Virus record (IMG/VR): IMGVR_UViG_2854558644_000001
Reading direction: 5' to 3' (one strand)
Length of the DNA stretch: 64,000 nt
DNA from: a virus
Taxonomy: Duplodnaviria; Heunggongvirae; Uroviricota; Caudoviricetes
Program-made: the position numbers and the translations under genes
Shown: positions 2,039-41,588 of the stretch, piece by piece
Numbering within the stretch: position 1 is the stretch's first letter
Layout: every line of letters starts with the position of its first letter
Notes under the pieces: generated by a model
Databases searched by the model: none
What the model saw: the letters and a program-made list of their open reading frames with translations, nothing else
What the model was told of the DNA's origin: nothing

Positions 2039-3223
2039 CTCGACTAGGCGAGTATAAACCGTGTCAAGCCTAGTGCGTTACCCACTCTTTGAGTGGGTAG
2101 GTCACAAAATCTACATCATCATTTTGTGATGGGTTCTCCATCATCAACCCTATTTTTGACTTACATTTTCGTCAAGATAGGGTTCTTTTTTACTCAACCC
2201 ATAAGTCAATAAAAATACATAACATTAAACGCAATACAAATAAAACCGTGATAAGCCGTAGAGGTACGACAGTTCTTCCCAAACGGTCTATTAAAGTCAC
2301 CCAAAATTTAAAGACGCAATGCATAAAGGTTACTGTATGTGTATTCTAGTGTGATTAACCTACACACGACATCAATACACTTACACAAAATACAACCTAG
2401 TTAGGAGGTGTGCGTTAATAAGTAGGTGACGATAGACTTCAGGTTTTGTGGACAAGTAGATGTTCTGCTCTAAACTATCAGCACAACACTACAAGAATAC
2501 ATATGATTGAACGGTCAAGGGTGTGGTTTGCGAGAACCATAAACGAGGAGATGTCGTATAGGGCTGACAAGGGTGTTACGGAGCACTCCCAAGTGGCTAG
2601 GTCAGCGAATATAAACTCTATATTCGGGAAAACTTGGTGAACAGCGCATGAAAAGTGGTGGCTGGTGGCAAGTACATAATACATAGTGTGTAAACACTAT
2701 CACATAGCATCTTGGTACAAATATAGTGAGTGATTGACACAATTCACTATCATAAAAATTAACAATGATTCGATAGCTCAGTATATAGTTAGCGACTGGC
2801 GTTTCGGTAAAACGATGAAAACTTATGCTTGGTTATTTGAAAAGTTGCTAGTGGAACAATACACAAGAATTAGTGGTAACACTAATGTTGAATGTATCTA
2901 TCTACATTCGTGTATGAGGTATGAGCAGTACAATCCCTGCCTATAAATCCTACTGTCTAGTGTAACTAGGTTGATAGTATATTCTGTAATCAGTTCGAGA
3001 ATAATGTCACTGATAAAACCGTATGTCTTGCAATCGGTTTGTATAAAACAGTGTAAGGTATTCGTAACAGTTGGAGCGAATTAAAATAATAAACTGTTGA
3101 CTGCATAAGGGTTAGTCACCTGATGATAAGTAATAAGTGAATATACCATTTAATGTTTGAGGTCTACCTAATAGGAAATAAGTGAATATATAACAGAGGA
3201 TGTGAGGGCTACTTATCTTATTT

Positions 3224-3297
3224 GTGCTTATATGTGGTGAATAATATAATGCTAACAACATTATACTTATCAGTAGGTTCGATTCCTACAAGCACAT
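3224..3297 (+). tRNA. tRNA-like element (degenerate D-arm), anticodon loop cuAACaa
   Basis: 74 nt: 7-bp acceptor TGTGCTT/AAGCACA, perfect T-arm GTAGG-TTCGATT-CCTAC, 5-7 bp anticodon stem TAATG/CATTA with loop CTAACAA; D-stem only 2-4 bp. Confidence 0.3.
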
Positions 3298-3348
3298 TGA
3301 CATTTAATGTCGAAAATAAAATATAAATTATATAGGAGGGTTAATACT

Positions 3349-3564
3349 ATGAACAAAGAAGAACTTAAAAGGCAGTATTCAGTAAATGCCGAAAAGGTGG
3401 CATGGAAAGAATGTGAAAACGAAGGCTATAAATGGAAAACATCAAAAGTAAACAAAGATGGATTCTATATCAATGAAGAGAAAGGGAAATATACTGTTGT
3501 AGACAGTAAAACCAATAGTCGAACAAGATTCAGACATAATCTTGCAGACTTAGAAGAATTATAA
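3349..3564 (+). CDS. hypothetical protein
   Basis: ORF; AGGAGGG SD 8 nt upstream of ATG 3349. Confidence 0.5.
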   Translation: MNKEELKRQYSVNAEKVAWKECENEGYKWKTSKVNKDGFYINEEKGKYTVVDSKTNSRTRFRHNLADLEEL

Positions 3565-3574
3565 TATTCAAGAA

Positions 3575-3610
3575 AGCACCCAAAGCAAAACGCAAAGGGT
3601 GCTATTTTTA
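3575..3610 (+). terminator. rho-independent terminator
   Basis: 7-bp stem AGCACCC/GGGTGCT, 15-nt loop, followed by ATTTTTA. Confidence 0.5.
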
Positions 3611-3648
3611 TACCCAAAAAGCATATCATAAGAAAGGAAACTAAAGTA

Positions 3649-3984
3649 ATGCGAAAAGAAATCAAATTTACACATCAGGAAAAGAGAAAACTGCTCATGG
3701 CAACCTTAACAGTAACACTCTCAATTTCTGCCTTATTTATAGGTAGAGCAGTTCAAAAGGTAACTTACAACAATCACACATACCCACTATCAACAGTGAT
3801 TGAGTGTGTAAACGGAAATGAAATAACAGCCAAGGATTTCAACGGAAACCTTTGGACATTCACAGATAACACAGAAGATTGGCTCAAGGGAGATATCTGT
3901 TCATTAATAATGCACGACAATTATACAGATATCATCTATGACGACACAATTATCAAAGCTCAATATTCAGGTTTTGTAAGATAA
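3649..3984 (+). CDS. hypothetical protein with N-terminal TM helix
   Basis: ORF+SD (AGAAAGGAAA). Confidence 0.55.
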   Translation: MRKEIKFTHQEKRKLLMATLTVTLSISALFIGRAVQKVTYNNHTYPLSTVIECVNGNEITAKDFNGNLWTFTDNTEDWLKGDICSLIMHDNYTDIIYDDTIIKAQYSGFVR

Positions 3985-4163: not shown

Positions 4164-4397
4164 ATGGAAATGTTTAATTTTAGAATCATTAAATGTGCAA
4201 ATGGAGCAGAAATTATAGACAATACGCTGTCAACTCCATACAATTCATTAACTCCAATACAGATGGTGGATTATATCAATGTCGAGGATTCATTGTTTGC
4301 AATGGAAAGGAAAGCAAAGGTAAATGCTAAAAAGGCAAATACAGATAATACTATATTACATAGAATCAAGTCAGTATTAAGAAGGGCGTTAGCATGA
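4164..4397 (+). CDS. hypothetical protein
   Basis: ORF+SD AGGAGG. Confidence 0.5.
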   Translation: MEMFNFRIIKCANGAEIIDNTLSTPYNSLTPIQMVDYINVEDSLFAMERKAKVNAKKANTDNTILHRIKSVLRRALA

Positions 4398-4522
4398 TTA
4401 ATATAAAGGGATTTTATAACGGATTCGCATACATGGGTTATATTCCATCACTATGCAAATATCAGCAGTTTGAAAGCGAAGTTGAATACAGAAATTATCT
4501 AAAAGAAAGAGGTGAAGTGTAA
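4394..4522 (+). CDS. small hypothetical protein (42 aa)
   Basis: ATGA overlap with upstream stop; small ORF fills gap. Confidence 0.3.
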   Translation: MINIKGFYNGFAYMGYIPSLCKYQQFESEVEYRNYLKERGEV

Positions 4523-4683
4523 TGTATATCACATATGAAGAACCACTTAAATGCAAAACATTTACAGAAAAGCAAATGCATGAAGTCTACAGAAATATGG
4601 TAGACAAAACAGAATATCCAGATTTTGAGTGTTGGAAAACAGATATGCTCAAGTCAGGAGTGTTTGAAAAGTCTAGTAACTAA
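4522..4683 (+). CDS. small hypothetical protein (53 aa)
   Basis: ORF+SD AGAGGTGAAG; TAATG overlap. Confidence 0.4.
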   Translation: MYITYEEPLKCKTFTEKQMHEVYRNMVDKTEYPDFECWKTDMLKSGVFEKSSN

Positions 4684-4760: not shown

Positions 4761-5693
4761 ATGTGCAAAATGTTTGAAGTAGTAACAGGAAGAAAGTCAA
4801 AGGGAAGTGTTGACAAGTTAGAAGGTCTTACAAAGGCATACACTGATATACATGAAGACATTGCAATTATTAGAATACCTGTTGAGTTAATGGAAGTTGA
4901 TTCACGGTATCAGACAGACGAAAGAACGGAAAGGGATTTAAAATATCTAACTAATAATTGGGATGAAAGAAAGCTCATGCCTTTACTTGGTGTACCACAT
5001 TGGGAAGAAGGCAAAGTGTATATAGTTGATGGTTATGGAAGATGGATTGCAAGTCAGATTGTAGATAAGGATAAATATAAGGATTTAAAGGTGCAACTAA
5101 TTTTAAATGCACCAACGGAAGATTCTGAAAGAGTTGCATTTGAAGCTGAATTATATGCATTTCAGGGTGTATCAGTTAGAAAGGTAACGCCAATTCAGAA
5201 GCATGGTGCAATGCTTGTATTACATGATCCAGCAACGGAAACACTTGAAAAAATGAAAAATATCTATGGCTTTGAGTATAGAGAAAATGCAGGTAATAGA
5301 GGAAGTGGAGTTCTTGGTTCATATACAGAAGCATTGAGTCTCTGTTCAATCGACAATGGAGCTTGTGCAGAATATGTATATGACATAATAAGAGATTCTG
5401 GATTTGATAGAAAACATAGCGGATATGTAAGTTATATAACTCGTGCATTAAGAGATATGTATAAGTTATATGCACAGGATAGAAGCGAAACAAAGAGTTT
5501 TTTATCAAATGAGTTTAGAAAAATTACACCAGAAAATTTAAAGGCAAATGCTTGTGCAAAATATCCTATTTTAGATTTTAGAACAGCGGTATCTCTTTAT
5601 GTTGAGGATATGATTGTAGAAGGACTTGGACTTGAACAGTCAAGAGTGATTGAAGGTACAAAGGTTATATTTATCAAGAAGAGAACAGCATAA
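4761..5693 (+). CDS. ParB-like nuclease (ParB N-terminal domain) protein
   Basis: ParB/Srx-type motif IVDGYGRWIASQ; ORF+SD. Confidence 0.6.
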   Translation: MCKMFEVVTGRKSKGSVDKLEGLTKAYTDIHEDIAIIRIPVELMEVDSRYQTDERTERDLKYLTNNWDERKLMPLLGVPHWEEGKVYIVDGYGRWIASQIVDKDKYKDLKVQLILNAPTEDSERVAFEAELYAFQGVSVRKVTPIQKHGAMLVLHDPATETLEKMKNIYGFEYRENAGNRGSGVLGSYTEALSLCSIDNGACAEYVYDIIRDSGFDRKHSGYVSYITRALRDMYKLYAQDRSETKSFLSNEFRKITPENLKANACAKYPILDFRTAVSLYVEDMIVEGLGLEQSRVIEGTKVIFIKKRTA

Positions 5694-29615: not shown

Positions 29616-31052
29616 ATGACAATGGTGGGAAGAGACAAAGTTAAAAAAGATCAGATGATGTTAGGAACATTACTTAATCAGTTTAAAAGAGGTCAGATTA
29701 ATAAGAATCATCCTTTGCAGAGAAAGCCTGATCAATGGTCAGATGAGGCAAAGTCAGGACTTGCTGCCACTATAATCAAAGGAGAGGATATTGATTCCAT
29801 TAAAATATGTGAGCAGATTGTAAGCTCGACAGAGTTCATTCTTTGGCTTATTGATGGATTGCAGAGATTAACTGTTCTTGAATCATTTAAGAATAATGCT
29901 TTTGAAATTAAGAAGAGTCTTGAAATGCCAATTATGTACTATCAAGGAGTTGATGAGAATGGAAAAGTTGGAGTTATTAAATATGATCTTAGAGGTAAAA
30001 AATACAAAGATTTACCAGATGAATTAAAGGAAAAATTCGATAGTTATGCTGTTGATATAGTCAAACATCTTGATTGTACAGATGAAGAAATAGCCTATCA
30101 TATTGCAAGATATAACAGACAGACAAGTATGAATGTAAATCAGAAAAATATTTTGGTTGCTTGGAAGATAGCACCTGAGATAAAAAAACTCGTCAGCAAT
30201 CGTTTCTTTATGGATTGTGGAAATTATAATCCAAAAGAAGATACAAAGGAAGTATTTAACAGAATTGTGTGTGAATCTATTATGACTATGTTTCATCTTG
30301 ATAACTGGAAGAAATCAAAACAAATGAGTTTGTATCTTAATGAAAATGCAACGAAAGATGAATTTGAGGTATTTGAGAATGAACTCAATAGGTTGTATGA
30401 GATTACTGATCAAGACACAGTAGGTAAATTGTTTAATTCAAAAAATTCATTTATATGGTTCGCTGCTTTTCATACATTTACACAGTTTGGAATTGAAGAT
30501 ATTAAATTTATTGATTTTCTTGAAGAGTTTCAGAAAACATTACATAGCAAGACATTTGTAGAATATGAGAATAAGAGTTTCGATACTTATGATGATGGTA
30601 AGGGAACTAAAGATAAGAAAGTTGTTAAGGCAAAACTTAACATGCTCGAACAGCTTATGAAGGAATATTTACATATTACAGAAGAAACTAATTCAGAAAC
30701 AGAGAATAATATAAATGAGTCTGATACAAAGTCGTGTGAATCAGATTCAACGCTTGAATTTATTCAGAATAATGTTTCAAAAGATGTATCAAATGAAGAT
30801 ATTGAAGAATATCAGGATTTTATGGATTCATATGTAAACATTGATTCTGAATTATACAAGCAGTGTTCTATAGCATTAATGGCTTTAACTGCTTATGCTT
30901 ACAAATGCGATAGAGATGTTGAATTAGGAAAATGGATTGAAAATTGTCAGTCAAGAAAGTGGCAGAATCTCAGTCCTTCGCAGGAAGTCAATTTCAAATA
31001 TATGAAGAGAAGTTTTGATAATTTCGTCAATGCAAATGGAGGAGCTGCTTAA
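29616..31052 (+). CDS. DUF262 domain protein with long C-terminal extension
   Basis: LIDGLQRLTVL matches DGQQR motif of DUF262. Confidence 0.55.
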   Translation: MTMVGRDKVKKDQMMLGTLLNQFKRGQINKNHPLQRKPDQWSDEAKSGLAATIIKGEDIDSIKICEQIVSSTEFILWLIDGLQRLTVLESFKNNAFEIKKSLEMPIMYYQGVDENGKVGVIKYDLRGKKYKDLPDELKEKFDSYAVDIVKHLDCTDEEIAYHIARYNRQTSMNVNQKNILVAWKIAPEIKKLVSNRFFMDCGNYNPKEDTKEVFNRIVCESIMTMFHLDNWKKSKQMSLYLNENATKDEFEVFENELNRLYEITDQDTVGKLFNSKNSFIWFAAFHTFTQFGIEDIKFIDFLEEFQKTLHSKTFVEYENKSFDTYDDGKGTKDKKVVKAKLNMLEQLMKEYLHITEETNSETENNINESDTKSCESDSTLEFIQNNVSKDVSNEDIEEYQDFMDSYVNIDSELYKQCSIALMALTAYAYKCDRDVELGKWIENCQSRKWQNLSPSQEVNFKYMKRSFDNFVNANGGAA

Positions 31053-36098: not shown

Positions 36099-36710
36099 TT
36101 GTGTGAATTTGAAGATGGGGCAATCGTTGAAAGTGATTTTACCAACATAAGTAAAGGAAACCTCAAAAGTCCTAATTTTCCAAATGTGTTTAATGTAGGA
36201 TATTTGGGTCAGGGTAAGTGGAAATGTAAAATAAATGGAAGCGTCACTAAAGAATATACTACATGGCATCATATGATAGAAAGATGTTATTCTGAAAAAG
36301 CACATTTAAAAAGTAATGCGTATGTAGGTGTAACAGTTTGTGATAGGTGGCATAATTTTCAGAATTTTTGTGACGATATCGTTTATTTAGATGGATATGA
36401 TCTTTGGAAAAATGGAGAATATGAATTAGATAAAGATTTTTTGTGTGAGAAATTAGGCTTAAAAAATAAAATATATTCCCCTGTCACATGTAAATTTATT
36501 CCAAGACCTATGAATATATCAGAAGCTACAACAAGAAAAAATTTAACTGGTAATACATACGTTGGAATTTCACCAAATGGAACAATATATGAATTTAAAA
36601 ATAAAAAGAAATTTGCAAGTGAACATACTGACATAAGTTATAGTTCGATTGACAGATGTTTAAATGAAAATAGGAAAATTAAAGGTTGGATATTTAAAAT
36701 TAAAAATTAG
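36099..36710 (+). CDS. putative free-standing homing-endonuclease-like protein (HNH_3/AP2-like)
   Basis: YTTWHHMIERCY...YVGVTVCDRW motifs; frame open from 35940 without ATG, TTG 36099 as possible start. Confidence 0.4.
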   Translation: MCEFEDGAIVESDFTNISKGNLKSPNFPNVFNVGYLGQGKWKCKINGSVTKEYTTWHHMIERCYSEKAHLKSNAYVGVTVCDRWHNFQNFCDDIVYLDGYDLWKNGEYELDKDFLCEKLGLKNKIYSPVTCKFIPRPMNISEATTRKNLTGNTYVGISPNGTIYEFKNKKKFASEHTDISYSSIDRCLNENRKIKGWIFKIKN

Positions 36711-37114: not shown

Positions 37115-37123
37115 TGTTTTATG

Positions 37124-37158
37124 GGCTGGCTGACGAACAGTTGGTCAGTCCTTTTTTA
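37124..37158 (+). terminator. rho-independent terminator
   Basis: GGCTGAC...GTCAGTCC stem then TTTTTT. Confidence 0.6.
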
Positions 37159-37182
37159 CAATAGAAAGAGAGAGGTACATAC

Positions 37183-37396
37183 TATGACTGAAAAGAAATT
37201 ATATACCTGCGATATTTGTAAGACTGATTATGCGGATAAGGAAAAGGCTAAACAGTGCGAGAAAAATCACAAGCTTTTAGAAAAAGCTACGATTGTTGGC
37301 GACTATAAATCTATGGGTAGTATTCCAATAGGAGAACCAATTAAAATTCGAGTTAAATTTCCAAACACAGATAAATGGATCGAATACAAGCGATAG
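37183..37396 (+). CDS. zinc-ribbon-like small protein
   Basis: ORF+SD AGAGAGAGG; CDICK...C. Confidence 0.5.
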
Positions 37397-37450
37397 TTTT
37401 GTTTAACTTGAATTTCACGATTCATGTGGAATTTAGAAAGGAAAGAATAT

Positions 37451-37696
37451 ATGGTTAGATATTTTTGCGATTTATGTGATAAGGAAGTTGATAAATATAA
37501 TGAGTATTCGTTGCCGATTGCAGTCACTTTTATAAATGGTGAACCATGTGATTTAATTCAAGTTCCTGGGTTTAATTTGTGTAAAGATTGTAGAAGTAGG
37601 TTTTACGGAGTCGTTGAAAGTATTGTTCCAAAGCAGAAGATTGAAGAATTAAATAAGAGGGCTTTGGATATAAAAATGGGAAGATGTGATGAGTAA
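37451..37696 (+). CDS. zinc-ribbon small protein
   Basis: CDLCDK...CKDC; ORF+SD AGAAAGGAAAG. Confidence 0.5.
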   Translation: MVRYFCDLCDKEVDKYNEYSLPIAVTFINGEPCDLIQVPGFNLCKDCRSRFYGVVESIVPKQKIEELNKRALDIKMGRCDE

Positions 37697-38099: not shown

Positions 38100-38245
38100 A
38101 TGAAAATATTTTTAGCAATTTTGATTCTAATTTCAGCATTGAATATAAATCTGACTTTAGAAAAGTTAAATGGTACAAAAAAGAGATATGATTTGCATTG
38201 TATCGTGTCGTTATTAGCATTTGTTTTGTTTATATTTTTCTTTTA
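38100..38245 (+). CDS. small membrane protein (48 aa)
   Basis: ORF+SD GGTGAGAGA. Confidence 0.4.
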
Positions 38246-38337
38246 AATAGAGAATAATCTAATATAGAAGTAATTCTATTCATGGCTGATCAGCCAAATT
38301 TTCCAAAAAAGTAACAAGAAATATTTTTTCATTCGAT

Positions 38338-38358
38338 TAGGCAGACGTGCCTATTTTC
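38338..38358 (+). terminator. rho-independent terminator
   Basis: TAGGCA-GACG-TGCCTA then TTTTCG. Confidence 0.45.
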
Positions 38359-38452
38359 GAGTGATTTTACAACAAAATAATATTAAGAAGAAAGGATTTA
38401 ACAGTAACTCCTAGGTATAAATGATTGCGCAATCTCTGTAGATTAAAGGATT

Positions 38453-39961
38453 TTGACAGAGAATAAAGAAAAAAATAATTATTGTGAGTTAAGTGTAATT
38501 GAACTTTGCAGTGGCATTGGAGCACAGATGAAGGGTATTGATAATACTCATCTATTTAATGCAAATATGATTGCAACAGCAGATTTAGATAAAGAAGTCG
38601 TGGTTAGTTATGCTGCAATTCATTGTGGTTTGACTAATGAAATGATTGAAAACTATGAAGATTATCCAAGCAAAGAAGAAATGGTAAAACAGCTTACAGA
38701 TAAGAGACTTGGATATGATTTTAAGAAAGATGTTCTGTATGATTGGGAGAAACTTTCACGAAAGAAGGACAAAACGAAAGGTATTGAGAAATATTGGTTA
38801 GCAGACCATATTTCACATAATCTTGGCGATATGATGCAGATTGAGTCACTGCCATATAGTGATTTACTTACATACTCGACTCCATGTACAGATCTTTCCA
38901 TTGCTGGTAAGCAAGAAGGATTAAAGTGGACATGTCATGATTGTGGTTGTGAATATGATCCATCAGAATTAGATGTAGATACTCGTTATACTTGCCCTAA
39001 TTGTGGCAGCCACAATATTAAATCAACTCGTTCAGGTTTATTGTATGAAGTTGAGAGACTTCTTGTAAAAGCAAAAGAGAATAATACATTACCAAAGTAT
39101 TTGCTTATGGAGAATGTAGATGCTCTTGTATCAAAGAAGTATATTGACAGTTTTAAGGATTGGTTGATTCGACTTGATAACTTGGGATATAACTCATATT
39201 ATCAGACAATCAATGCAAAGAATACTGGTATTCCACAGAATCGTAATAGAATCTTCTGTATCTCTATTCGTAAGGATATTGATACCAAGTCATTTGAATT
39301 TCCACAGCCTTTTGATACAGGAATCAGATTAAAGGATTTATTAGAAACAGATAGCAGTGTTCTGGAGAAATATTTCTTATCTGATGAAGTACAAAAAAGA
39401 CTTCAGATAACAGATCCAAAATTTGAAAAGAATGTAGTAGGAACAACAATTGGACAAAATTGTACCAGGTTAGGTAACAGAGATTTAGTTTATCAGCAGG
39501 ATTCAGTAATGGGTGCTTTAGTGGCAACTGATTATAAACAACCAAAACAGATTTTTGCCAATTCAAACGAACCAATACATATTGCTGATTTATGCAGCGA
39601 AAAGTTTCAGAGAATGCATGAGCAGTCTCGCAGAGTATATAGCGAAGATGGAATTGCACCAGCTATGCATACTTGCGGTGGTGGTAATACAGAACCAAAG
39701 GTTGAGAGAGATAATTTAAAAGTCGTAAGAAAGCTTACACCAAAAGAGTGTCATAGGCTCATGGGATTCAATGATATTGATTATGAGAATTGTAAAGCAG
39801 TTGGAATGTCTGATACTCAGGGATATAAACAAAGCGGTAACAGTATAGTGACAACTTGCATCTCTTTGTTGATTGAGCATTTATATAAGGCTCAGTATGA
39901 TAATACATATATTTGTACAGATGAGAAGATGGTAAATTTTCATCAGCCACAAGTGGATTAA
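38453..39961 (+). CDS. DNA (cytosine-5)-methyltransferase with zinc-ribbon insertion
   Basis: motif I LCSGIGAQ, motif IV TPCTDLSIAGK, motif VI LLMENVDAL, motif VIII GIPQNRNRIF, TRD-end RRVYSEDGIAPAMHTCGGG, IX RKLTPKECHRLMGF, X GNSIVTT; starts at TTG (first ATG would delete motif I). Confidence 0.8.
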   Translation: MTENKEKNNYCELSVIELCSGIGAQMKGIDNTHLFNANMIATADLDKEVVVSYAAIHCGLTNEMIENYEDYPSKEEMVKQLTDKRLGYDFKKDVLYDWEKLSRKKDKTKGIEKYWLADHISHNLGDMMQIESLPYSDLLTYSTPCTDLSIAGKQEGLKWTCHDCGCEYDPSELDVDTRYTCPNCGSHNIKSTRSGLLYEVERLLVKAKENNTLPKYLLMENVDALVSKKYIDSFKDWLIRLDNLGYNSYYQTINAKNTGIPQNRNRIFCISIRKDIDTKSFEFPQPFDTGIRLKDLLETDSSVLEKYFLSDEVQKRLQITDPKFEKNVVGTTIGQNCTRLGNRDLVYQQDSVMGALVATDYKQPKQIFANSNEPIHIADLCSEKFQRMHEQSRRVYSEDGIAPAMHTCGGGNTEPKVERDNLKVVRKLTPKECHRLMGFNDIDYENCKAVGMSDTQGYKQSGNSIVTTCISLLIEHLYKAQYDNTYICTDEKMVNFHQPQVD

Positions 39962-40748
39962 GTTCTGCTTGTGGTGATAAACCACAATTAGTTGGTGGTG
40001 TCGGTGAAATAAATTTTGGGAAGCAATTTCGTCAGGGTAATAGAGTATATGATTCAGATCATGTAGCAATGTGTTTATTAGCACAGCCTGTAGGTAATGC
40101 TGGTGGGTTCAGTTACTTGTATACGGTGGCAAAAAATTTTAATTTGCCCTCTATTCTAAATGTAACTTATGAAAATGATGTTCAAAGAGTTGGAACTGTA
40201 AGTGAGAATAGTCTTATTGGCGGTAGAGTTATAGGAATAGAGGGTATTTGTTTCACATTAATGGCTTGTACTCATGGTTATGGTATGGAAAACATCTATG
40301 ACAGTAGAAAGTTGGTGTTAGATGAAAAATTCAGAAAATACACCAAATGAATTGATTTTTGTTGGTGGTATAGATAGTAAGTTATGGTTGGATAATGGCA
40401 AACAGTTATCTAGGAACTTTAAACAAGGATACAGAGTTTACAGTAGTGAAGGAGTTGCCTGTTCTATTACGACAAATGGTGGAGGTCTAGGTGGTTGTAC
40501 TGGACTCTATCTTATAGAAAGAGAGAATAATGAATAAGAATATACAATTTGAATCATTAACTCGAAGTAAGTGGGTTAATGATAAATATAAAGAGTTTTA
40601 TCGTAAAAATGGTTATCTTCCTAAATATTTTGATGTATATAATGGTACAGAAATTACAGATTATGCACCTACATTGTCAACAAGAAGTAATGGAGCAATG
40701 GGAAGTGGTACTGTATTGATTATGATTGATAAACATGATATTGAATAG
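39925..40748 (+). pseudogene. tandem C5-MTase TRD-end fragments in three overlapping frames (decayed multispecific MTase or silent TRD cassettes)
   Basis: four copies of TRD-end block: QGNRVYDSDHVAMCLLAQPVGNAGG, GGRVIGIEGICFTLMACTHGYG, QGYRVYSSEGVACSITTNGGGLGG, ITDYAPTLSTRSNGAMGSG; no motifs I-X. Confidence 0.5.
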
Positions 40749-40754
40749 AAAATA

Positions 40755-40797
40755 ACAATATATAGCGATTATAAATACAATACATACTATATATTGT
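40755..40797. repeat. 11-bp perfect inverted repeat ACAATATATAG/CTATATATTGT (21-nt spacer)
   Basis: seen directly upstream of gene 40860. Confidence 0.6.
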
Positions 40798-40859
40798 ATA
40801 AAAATTAAGACCAAAAGAAAGCGGAATTTCTTGCGATGAAACATGAAGGGAGAAAGAAT

Positions 40860-41588
40860 ATGTATCCAGAATACGATGATTTTTATGAGCCAAGTGAAGG
40901 CGAAATGTTTTTTGATGAAATGAAAGAAAAGTTCAGAGAGATTTTACGTGAAGATGTAAACTCTGAAATTAACAGATTAACAGAAGAAAATGCAGAATTA
41001 AGGCAAAAGGTTAAAGAGTACAATGATAAAAATTTAAATCTTTCTTGTAGAGAAAGAGATTTGCAGTACAAAATGGACAATTACAAACGAGAGGTAGAAA
41101 ACGATTTTTATAATAAAACAATGGAAGAAGTTTTTGAGAAATTATTAGAAGACTCAGAAGTGTGGTATGCAGAACATGTTCCTCATGAGAAACCAAAATG
41201 TAATTTATGTAACGAAGAAAGAAAACTCGTTGCAGTATATCCAAATGGTGAAACTGTGACCAAGGAGTGTGAATGTTCTCGACCAACATATATTTATGAG
41301 CCAGTAATTTCATTGAATAAAGAGATTAAGTTTCATAAAGCATATAAGCCAAGATACAGTGATAAAAAGAAAATCTATTTTACTAAAAATCACAGACCAA
41401 ACAAGGATTATGCAGATGCGTATGATTATTATAGTGAATTCAGAATAGAAAATATTTTTGATGATTTTAATGATGATGTAATTGCATATCACAATGGTAA
41501 AAGATATGGAGAAAAAATTGCATTCAGAAGCAAAGAGGCTTGTCAGAAATATTGTGATTGGCTTAATGTTAATGAGGAGTATAAGTAA
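40860..41588 (+). CDS. hypothetical coiled-coil protein with CxxC pair
   Basis: ORF+SD GAAGGGAG. Confidence 0.55.
   Translation: MYPEYDDFYEPSEGEMFFDEMKEKFREILREDVNSEINRLTEENAELRQKVKEYNDKNLNLSCRERDLQYKMDNYKREVENDFYNKTMEEVFEKLLEDSEVWYAEHVPHEKPKCNLCNEERKLVAVYPNGETVTKECECSRPTYIYEPVISLNKEIKFHKAYKPRYSDKKKIYFTKNHRPNKDYADAYDYYSEFRIENIFDDFNDDVIAYHNGKRYGEKIAFRSKEACQKYCDWLNVNEEYK

Follow-up and report, generated by a model that had tools for sequence, protein, structure and literature searches.

What does a putative zinc ribbon do in the middle of the catalytic loop of a phage DNA methyltransferase, and does the protein end where its first reading frame ends? Both questions are raised by a single gene in the 64,000-nucleotide stretch of DNA from a virus of the Caudoviricetes that was analyzed in this study (IMG/VR record IMGVR_UViG_2854558644_000001; hereafter the window). 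This C5-cytosine DNA methyltransferase (MTase) gene carries an insert with two CxxC pairs and closes with a candidate -1 frameshift signal. We found that the insert is real and conserved, that it is already known as a sequence feature, and that it is widespread in phage-type enzymes. It defines a large structural variant, so far unstudied, of the flip-and-lock loop, the best-understood element of C5-MTases, and it probably serves as a zinc-braced extension of that loop. On its own the ribbon is of moderate interest, since it is common and already present in databases, and the frameshift signal is the more novel and unusual feature of the gene.

A Cys4 insert in the catalytic loop

Two features are needed first.

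38453 to 39961, plus strand: C5-cytosine DNA methyltransferase gene, 502 amino acids (aa), TTG start, stop codon TAA at 39959-39961 (open reading frame list, Pfam, PDB and Foldseek)
38924 to 39025, plus strand: putative zinc-ribbon insert, residues K158-S191, in the catalytic loop; knuckle 1, C161-C164, at 38933-38944; knuckle 2, C181-C184, at 38993-39004

An earlier inspection of the letters alone (the sequence-only reading) had placed an insertion between motifs IV and VI, at 38923-39024. The quoted peptide, KWTCHDCGCEYDPSELDVDTRYTCPNCGSHNIKS, was found as residues 158-191, but its codons lie one base later than proposed, at 38924-39025. The insertion itself also stood, although its site is more exactly the stretch from motif IV to motif V, within the mobile catalytic loop of 20 residues (81-100 in HhaI). 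In phmmer alignments to M.MpeI and M.HhaI, the match broke at query position 157/158 and resumed at 191/192 (...SIAGKQEGL(157), then (191)STRSGLLYEVERLL); at the break M.MpeI advanced by 4 residues (147 to 152) and M.HhaI by 2 (94 to 96). Judged from these alignments, the insert interrupts the mobile catalytic loop (Pro144-Cys145 to Thr192-Arg193) 17 residues past the catalytic Pro-Cys. The segment had been expected to be short in canonical enzymes, and it indeed comprises 3-5 residues in M.MpeI, M.HhaI and a sister family of MTases that has no zinc insert.

The conservation of the insert was concentrated on its Cys residues. C161, C164, C181 and C184 were unchanged in the 120 closest database homologues (72-98% identity) and invariant among 33 relatives of 28-58% identity, including those of phi3T and Roseburia phage Shimadzu; in the alignment of these 33 relatives, the invariance of the four Cys equalled that of G21, G23, P144, C145, E220-N221-V222, Q262, R264 and R266. 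A fifth Cys, C166 ('CGC'), was replaced by Y, H, T, M, E or F in other homologues and is therefore no candidate for a ligand. The second knuckle is a classic CPxCG. We then scanned 1.84 billion 50%-identity cluster representatives by HMMER with the 91-aa motif IV-VI segment as query, which returned 868 proteins at E<=1e-3, 108 of them at E<=1e-10. Among the best 150 clusters, at least 97 had the CxxC...CxxC insert at the same position; the first Cys stood 17 residues past the Pro of the PC motif in 96 of the 97, and the spacer between the knuckles was 16 aa long in 75. The remaining conserved positions were mostly hydrophobic or structural, the whole set being W159, C161, C164, Y168, P170, R178, C181-P182, C184 and K190. 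As read from these alignments, the Cys4 pattern lies far above chance.

Other lines of evidence pointed in the same direction. In an AlphaFold2 model of the MTase built on a 72-sequence alignment, insert residues 161-190 reached predicted local distance difference test (pLDDT) values of 89/85/90, compared with 72-74 in the flanking loop, and strands were predicted at 159-161, 166-167 and 189-191, forming a small three-stranded unit. The insert was thus modelled confidently (pLDDT 85-90, three short strands). Alignment showed that the loop is subfamily-specific, yet its presumed zinc ligands are conserved. With four invariant Cys and a CPxCG second knuckle, the proposal of two Cys pairs forming zinc-type knuckles was supported, and we infer that one Zn2+ would be held tetrahedrally by C161, C164, C181 and C184, bracing a three-stranded mini-domain. 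Generic zinc ribbons (HypA, TFIIB, Cas12f TNB and HVO_2753) likewise have two CxxC pairs about 16 residues apart, a second knuckle of the CPxCG type and short beta strands; judged by sequence, this likeness indicates a fold class and not family membership. The CXXC domain of DNMT1/MLL is also a Cys-zinc module within a cytosine methyltransferase polypeptide. However, it recognizes unmethylated CpG, has eight Cys and binds two zinc ions, and it forms its own domain at the N terminus rather than an insertion into the catalytic loop. A Pfam scan revealed no sequence similarity to this domain in the MTase protein.

The insert is no peculiarity of the gene in which it was noticed. It recurs at a fixed position in hundreds of phage-type C5-MTase clusters, phi3T/SPbeta among them, and the subfamilies that bear it include ..KSTRSGLL..LLENV, ..KTRSSLLVE..YENV and ..AASRSGMFFE..AENV. 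A profile search gave 6001 matches at E<=1e-20, and the four Cys were present in 109 of the 110 inspectable best matches. Named carriers were the Bacillus phages phi3T and SPbeta (mtbP) and their hybrids, Bacillus phage Eldridge and Roseburia phage Shimadzu; the variant also includes enzymes, such as those of phi3T and SPbeta, that have long been used as tools or models. The closest named protein was UniProt A0A8S5S2B9 (Siphoviridae sp. ctCIv11; 88% identity), and an 81%-identical copy was annotated in Coprococcus phoceensis. In species-representative bacterial genomes, the insert was found in two of 76 relatives (Eubacterium plexicaudatum ASF492, 82% identity, and one metagenome-assembled genome), which is a rough figure as the search patterns excluded the insert. 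Relatives of the MTase lay on IMG/VR contigs of 100-160 kb, and a 20-kb nucleotide search against INPHARED phages gave no match.

Two variants of the zinc-ribbon MTases were also observed. In one lineage of 792-833 aa proteins (P0134, P0337-P0382), the first knuckle is shortened to CxC (NKCSCGYSW...ICPNCG), still with four Cys. In Roseburia phage Shimadzu (L002), the zinc-ribbon MTase orf41 (333 aa, 2815-3816) stops before motifs IX-X, and a separate 'DNA methyltransferase', orf42 (113 aa, 4192-4533), lies 375 nucleotides (nt) 3' of it, so that the gene may be split or interrupted.

The enzyme around the insert appeared to be complete. Its motifs are as follows.

38498 to 38527, plus strand: motif I, S-adenosylmethionine binding, IELCSGIGAQ, upstream of the first ATG (38528); sequence reading
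Motif II: ADLDKEVVVSY; sequence reading
Motif III: LGDMMQI; sequence reading
38873 to 38911, plus strand: motif IV with the catalytic Cys145 and the start of the catalytic loop, YSTPCTDLSIAGK; aligned to M.MpeI FPCQDLSVQG and HhaI GFPCQAFSISGK; P144 and C145 invariant
39026 to 39118, plus strand: motif V, TRSGLLYEVERLL, to motif VI, YLLMENV; aligned to M.MpeI NTRSGLLWEIERIL...PKYLLMENV
Motif VII: FKDWLIRLDNLGY; sequence reading
39236 to 39256, plus strand: motif VIII, QNRNRIF; Q262, R264 and R266 invariant
39728 to 39850, plus strand: motif IX, RKLTPKECHRLMGF, and motif X, GNSIV; aligned to the C-terminal stretches of M.HhaI and M.MpeI

All ten canonical motifs could be read in canonical order in the 502-aa protein, which is encoded by the sole long open reading frame (ORF) at the locus. 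The claim of a complete C5-MTase was supported by this motif reading, by the match to Pfam PF00145 DNA_methylase (169.9 bits; cut-off 22) and by the alignments to M.HhaI and M.MpeI; the protein also matched PHROG 116, 'DNA methyltransferase'. Among PDB sequences, phmmer placed M.MpeI (4dkj/8c56; E=1.5e-29) and M.HhaI (E=4e-23) closest. The AlphaFold2 model had the two-domain MTase fold (mean pLDDT 79.6; predicted template modelling score 0.79), and in Foldseek it matched M.HhaI with a template modelling (TM) score of 0.84-0.86 (probability 1.00) and M.MpeI with 0.75-0.78, both target-normalised; a model from a shallow alignment (>=79% identity; pLDDT 57.9) was set aside in its favour. Between motifs VIII and IX, two units resembling target recognition domains (TRDs) were readable (..VYQQDSVMGALVATDYKQPKQI.. 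and ..RRVYSEDGIAPAMHTCGGGNTEPKV..), and pLDDT fell below 50 at residues 315-370. As in the SPR/phi3T-type multispecific MTases, the gene is phage-borne and has no cognate endonuclease nearby. By its sequence, the gene is best described as an orphan, anti-restriction-type C5-cytosine DNA methyltransferase of a large gut phage (about 160 kb) with Lachnospiraceae-like hosts, and the enzyme groups with the M.MpeI/M.SssI/phi3T-like branch.

Completeness of the enzyme depends on where translation begins. A start at ATG 38528 would remove motif I, whose residues E17-G23 and Q25 showed no variation in 50 orthologues; motif I therefore requires the TTG start at 38453. This start had been proposed earlier and was supported in several ways. 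First, an in-frame TAA (38444-38446) stands three codons upstream, and TTG 38453 is the first canonical start, with no other ATG, GTG or TTG before 38528, which lies past motif I. Second, an orthologue of 81% identity (P0069) has its TTG right behind a TAA and reads QIKG in place of QMKG, leaving no ATG as alternative. Third, the phi3T GenBank record carries the remark 'ttg start codon'. A caveat is that the Shine-Dalgarno-like AAAGGA ends just 2 nt 5' of the TTG, which is atypically close. Many database copies (P0015, P0017, P0021, P0030 and others; BFVD/UniProt A0A8S5S2B9) are annotated from an internal ATG, with 476-477 aa; the conserved TTG start was overlooked, which leaves these copies without motif I.

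Comparison with characterized enzymes further delimited the insert. M.Phi3TI and SPbeta MtbP, multispecific enzymes of the Bacillus subtilis phages phi3T, SPbeta and rho11s, are likewise orphan C5-MTases of Firmicutes phages with an annotated TTG start; they contain several TRD-like units. The phi3T enzyme, the sequence of which reportedly dates from the 1980s, also carries a CxxC...CxxC insert from motif IV to motif V, at the position seen in the window (GFPCPTFSVAGGRDGMEYKCSNCSHEHLITYEDYKKGVKCPKCEAVSKAKDERGTLFFE), with a spacer of 17 aa against 16 in the window and approximately 32% identity over motifs IV-VI. However, its insert has neither the W nor the Y-(N/D)-P signature, the insertion of about 70 aa between motifs II and III is absent, and its record showed neither C-terminal modules nor a frameshift site. 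The CpG-specific M.MpeI and M.SssI (PDB 4dkj, 8c56-59) share motifs V-VI (TRSGLL..ER.L...PKYLLMENV) and the long motif II-III insertion with the window's enzyme, whereas M.MpeI, a chromosomal mollicute enzyme with a single TRD, has 4 residues and no Cys where the window has 34. M.HhaI, a monospecific type II restriction-modification enzyme, has the same fold and motifs but no insert; its 20-residue catalytic loop 81-100 is the element that is interrupted in the window's MTase.

Possible roles of the insert

The behavior of this loop is well described in M.HhaI, where loop 81-100 closes over the DNA in a large movement, engulfing it and locking the flipped cytosine, and where tryptophan reporters at K91 and E94 (K91W and E94W), a spot equivalent to the insert, read out loop closure (PMC3089467). 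Because of this behavior and the position of the insert, and because the insertion point is fixed and conservation is concentrated on the ligands and core residues, we favor a role in cis and regard it as probable that the ribbon is a zinc-braced structural extension of the catalytic loop. The loop would swing onto the DNA, locking the flipped cytosine and the cofactor, with the ribbon riding on it and enlarging the 'lid' by a rigid, zinc-braced part. In this position the ribbon could stabilize the closed, catalytically competent state from the minor-groove/backbone side, and it would be no independent reader of sequence. Its location relative to DNA was deduced by sequence alignment alone.

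Several observations weigh against this interpretation. First, the Pfam zinc-ribbon matches of the insert were all below threshold (HypA, 24.0 bits against 28.9; TFIIB, Cas12f TNB and HVO_2753, 10-13 bits); every one of the weak matches was to a zinc-ribbon family. Second, the insert carries a net charge of -2 here, and among the 97 clusters its charge varies from -5 to +6 (median 0), so that strong backbone contacts are not obvious. Third, the sister MTases from similar gut phages (42-47% identity) have no zinc insert and carry three residues (QGQ) in its place, and 74 of the 76 cellular relatives do without it, suggesting that any benefit is conditional. Finally, literature searches found no description or test of a zinc module in the catalytic loops of bacterial or phage C5-MTases. 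Since the sister enzymes have QGQ where the window has the ribbon, the ribbon appears to be an accessory and not a requirement. The two families form a natural pair with near-identical flanks, GKQEGLK[W..S]TRSGLLYEVERLL against GKQEGIKQGQTRSGLLYEVQRLL in the sister; the sister family reads PCTDISVAGKQEGIKQGQTRSGLLYEVQRLL, and the window reads PCTDLSIAGKQEGLK-[WTCHDCG...SHNIKS]-TRSGLLYEVERLL. Such a pair of phage enzymes with and without the insert makes the effect of the ribbon directly testable.

Zinc ribbons frequently bind nucleic acids, and the insert sits in a loop that engulfs DNA and has conserved R178 and K190. Thus, the ribbon might read DNA directly, touching flanking bases or backbone in the minor groove on loop closure and thereby altering flank preference, affinity or processivity. 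We consider this unlikely: the net charge of the insert is about zero, the hairpin between the knuckles is acidic here (EYDPSELDVDT), the inter-knuckle residues vary freely between subfamilies, and in this enzyme class the target is read by the TRDs. A basic DNA-binding insert as such was unsupported by the charges (-2 here, median 0), and a classical basic DNA-binding surface is unlikely because the net charge is close to zero.

The absence of the insert from close relatives would also suit a tolerated passenger, namely the remnant of an old insertion that is folded by zinc and has no effect on methylation, and the loops of C5-MTases do tolerate insertions, some orthologues even having an intein at Cys145. 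However, the four ligands and several core residues were invariant over deep divergence, the position is fixed to the residue, and the catalytic loop is the most functionally sensitive loop of the enzyme; a passenger is therefore very improbable, and an extension acting in cis remains our favored explanation. The inteins were seen in two orthologues of 858-860 aa (P0028 and P0093; Pfam PF14890), exactly at the catalytic Cys of motif IV (...YSTP|CFTENT...IVHN|CTDLS).

A candidate frameshift signal and the modules beyond the stop codon

The 3' end of the gene and the region behind it contain the following features.

39934 to 39940, plus strand: slippery heptamer A_AAT_TTT, in phase with MTase codons N495 and F496 (GTA AAT TTT); candidate -1 site
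39947 to 39974, plus strand: hairpin 6 nt 3' of the heptamer; 39947-39957 pairs with 39964-39974, and the loop, 39958-39963, holds the MTase stop codon
39934 to 40350 (open from 39925), plus strand: ORF in the -1 frame; linker SSATSGLSSACGDKPQ followed by the TRD-like modules o1a (39988-40122) and o1b (40180-40287)
40322 to 40537, plus strand: small ORF o2, 71 aa, ATG start, one stand-alone TRD-like module; a called gene in L006; ratio of non-synonymous to synonymous polymorphism (pN/pS) 0.07-0.13
40530 to 40748, plus strand: small ORF o3, 72 aa, ATG overlapping the o2 stop, one stand-alone TRD-like module; pN/pS 0.3-0.58

Recoding by an X_XXY_YYZ heptamer and a hairpin is established, with tail chaperone G/GT and dnaX as phage examples. 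At the MTase gene, both elements were conserved. Across 74 related IMG/VR loci and several Logan/ENA contigs, the heptamer was in phase at 55 of 55 sites representing 22 distinct sequences, and the codon before it was NNA in all cases, though it encoded V, I, A, R, E, G or L. The hairpin had a minimum free energy of -19.5 kcal/mol (z = -4.5), and in 10 distinct sequences its 8 core pairs formed throughout (100% pairing, 2 compensatory changes), compared with 30-49% pairing in slid controls; RNAalifold extended it to 12 bp. Variants in other lineages ranged from -15 to -19.6 kcal/mol. The exception was the variant of L007/L036, a lineage with a shortened linker, which was weak (-7.2 kcal/mol, z = -0.25). 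An Rfam scan of 38200-40900 gave no match, and literature searches found no report of frameshifting in MTase genes. On the strength of these sequence patterns we hold a programmed -1 ribosomal frameshift at the 3' end of the MTase gene to be likely, with somewhat more confidence than we have in the role of the ribbon. The frameshift product would have a predicted length of 632 aa, beside the 502-aa enzyme.

The -1 frame overlaps the 3' end of the MTase gene and has no ATG, GTG or TTG before 40069, which is already within o1a. The ratio of non-synonymous to synonymous substitution rates (dN/dS) of o1a was 0.01-0.08 at dS 0.3-2 (L006 and L026, for example, differ by 15 synonymous changes and no non-synonymous one), and pN/pS of o1b was 0-0.07. 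The -1 ORF is under strong purifying selection. In a relative of 82% identity (L043), a spacer longer by 1 nt puts the linker and module naturally in frame with the MTase.

Three small ORFs directly follow the MTase stop codon, each 49-62% identical to one TRD module of multispecific MTases, where these modules are located between motifs VIII and IX. For o2, the identity to single TRD modules of long multispecific MTases was 49-62% (e.g., P0166, aa 463-522); o3 was 49% identical to the last TRD of P0141, just ahead of its motif IX. Both o2 and o3 have their own ATG, each overlapping the stop of the preceding ORF, and no catalytic motifs; their counterparts in L006 lie at 4969-5226 and 5219-5449. 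Both may be recognition modules in their own right. The possibility that the downstream ORFs are random debris of a dead MTase was considered and is unlikely, as the ORF edges coincide with module edges, the frames are kept in L006 and pN/pS of o2 is 0.07-0.13. In some relatives (P0014, P0022, P0084, P0108 and P0126; L006, 3001-4650), a TRD-like module was observed in frame past motif X, just before the N-F codons of the heptamer. The junctions of these in-frame modules (...EKMVN|GIIDSD...TGVVR|NFHQPQAD) are a non-canonical position for a TRD.

Taken together, these arrangements allow a broader, tentative proposal, namely that a recoded, modular specificity system might be built on the MTase gene, with the 632-aa isoform and o2 and o3 acting in trans, and with a wider, phage-variable set of methylated sites. 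That the modules past motif X are used in target recognition is itself conceivable, though somewhat doubtful. A competing explanation is that the modules constitute a cassette reservoir maintained by recombination with expressed copies. If the proposal is true, the frameshift and the post-motif-X modules would be a new phage route to diversify methylation specificity against host restriction, target recognition by C5-MTases would tolerate an unexpected topology, and the annotation of many metagenomic MTase genes would be corrected for missed TTG starts and missed extended isoforms. In M.AquI and M.EcoHK31I, C5-MTase function is spread over separately encoded polypeptides (PMC3404938). These enzymes are a loose precedent for the arrangement: their additional polypeptide supplies motifs IX-X or motif IX, whereas the extra pieces in the window are TRD-like modules past motif X.

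The sister family provided additional information about the modules. Its module-less members (among relatives L053-L077; 42-47% identity) end in ...EVDTETRKETKC*. In the cassette-bearing members (L061, L062, L064 and L075; heptamer at position 2157 of L061), the zero frame ends in ...EVDTENFI*, and the -1 frame contains the linker, the module and ETRKETKC*; with this ending, the frameshift would restore the ancestral C-terminal tail in the sister family. The module of the sister family was about 85% identical to that of the window, whereas the host genes were only about 45% identical, and both the type and the order of modules varied between phages. The difference in identity suggests that the TRD modules are mobile cassettes shuffled between phages. 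A lineage of 87% identity (L007-L009; 4467-6057) had the MTase, one TRD module, degenerate remnants of motifs IX/X and a TnpB/IS605 OrfB gene; the remnants (RKLNTTVADRLQTLPDNYTF and GNGWTVSVI) contain a stop and a frameshift, and the frameshift hairpin of this lineage is weak.

The presence of non-canonical C-terminal and stand-alone TRD modules at the same locus, together with the neutral to acidic surface of the ribbon, brings up another function for the insert. It could be a protein docking site for dimerization, for a phage or host partner, or for the extra TRD modules, either C-terminal or on separate small proteins. This appears improbable, even more so than direct reading of DNA: the C-terminal TRD cassette and the frameshift site are shared by the zinc-less sister family, so that the features are uncoupled, phi3T has the insert without such modules, and the presence of the insert did not correlate with the length of the variable region (174 against 227 aa, p = 0.27). 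Two general associations of the insert were likewise rejected. One was a tie to multi-TRD enzymes with a long variable region, for which the length from motif VIII to IX had a median of 174 aa in 42 enzymes with the zinc insert and 227 aa in nine without it; the other was a coupling to the C-terminal cassettes or the frameshift, as both cassette and heptamer occur in the zinc-less sisters. A weaker addition to the modular proposal is that the zinc-braced loop might help the core to work with non-canonically attached TRDs, against which the zinc-less sister family also argues.

Neighboring genes

The window is phage-like, with nearly all ORFs on the plus strand and many small genes. Upstream of the MTase gene, an ORF resembling HNH homing endonucleases was found at 36099-36710 (PHROG 2081, E=4e-50), followed by genes for two small proteins with CxxC pairs at 37121-37396 and 37424-37696, which had no family match. 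Further upstream, a 478-aa ORF at 29616-31052 had a sub-threshold match (18.5 bits against 33.2) to GmrSD_N, the N-terminal domain of a modified-DNA restriction endonuclease.

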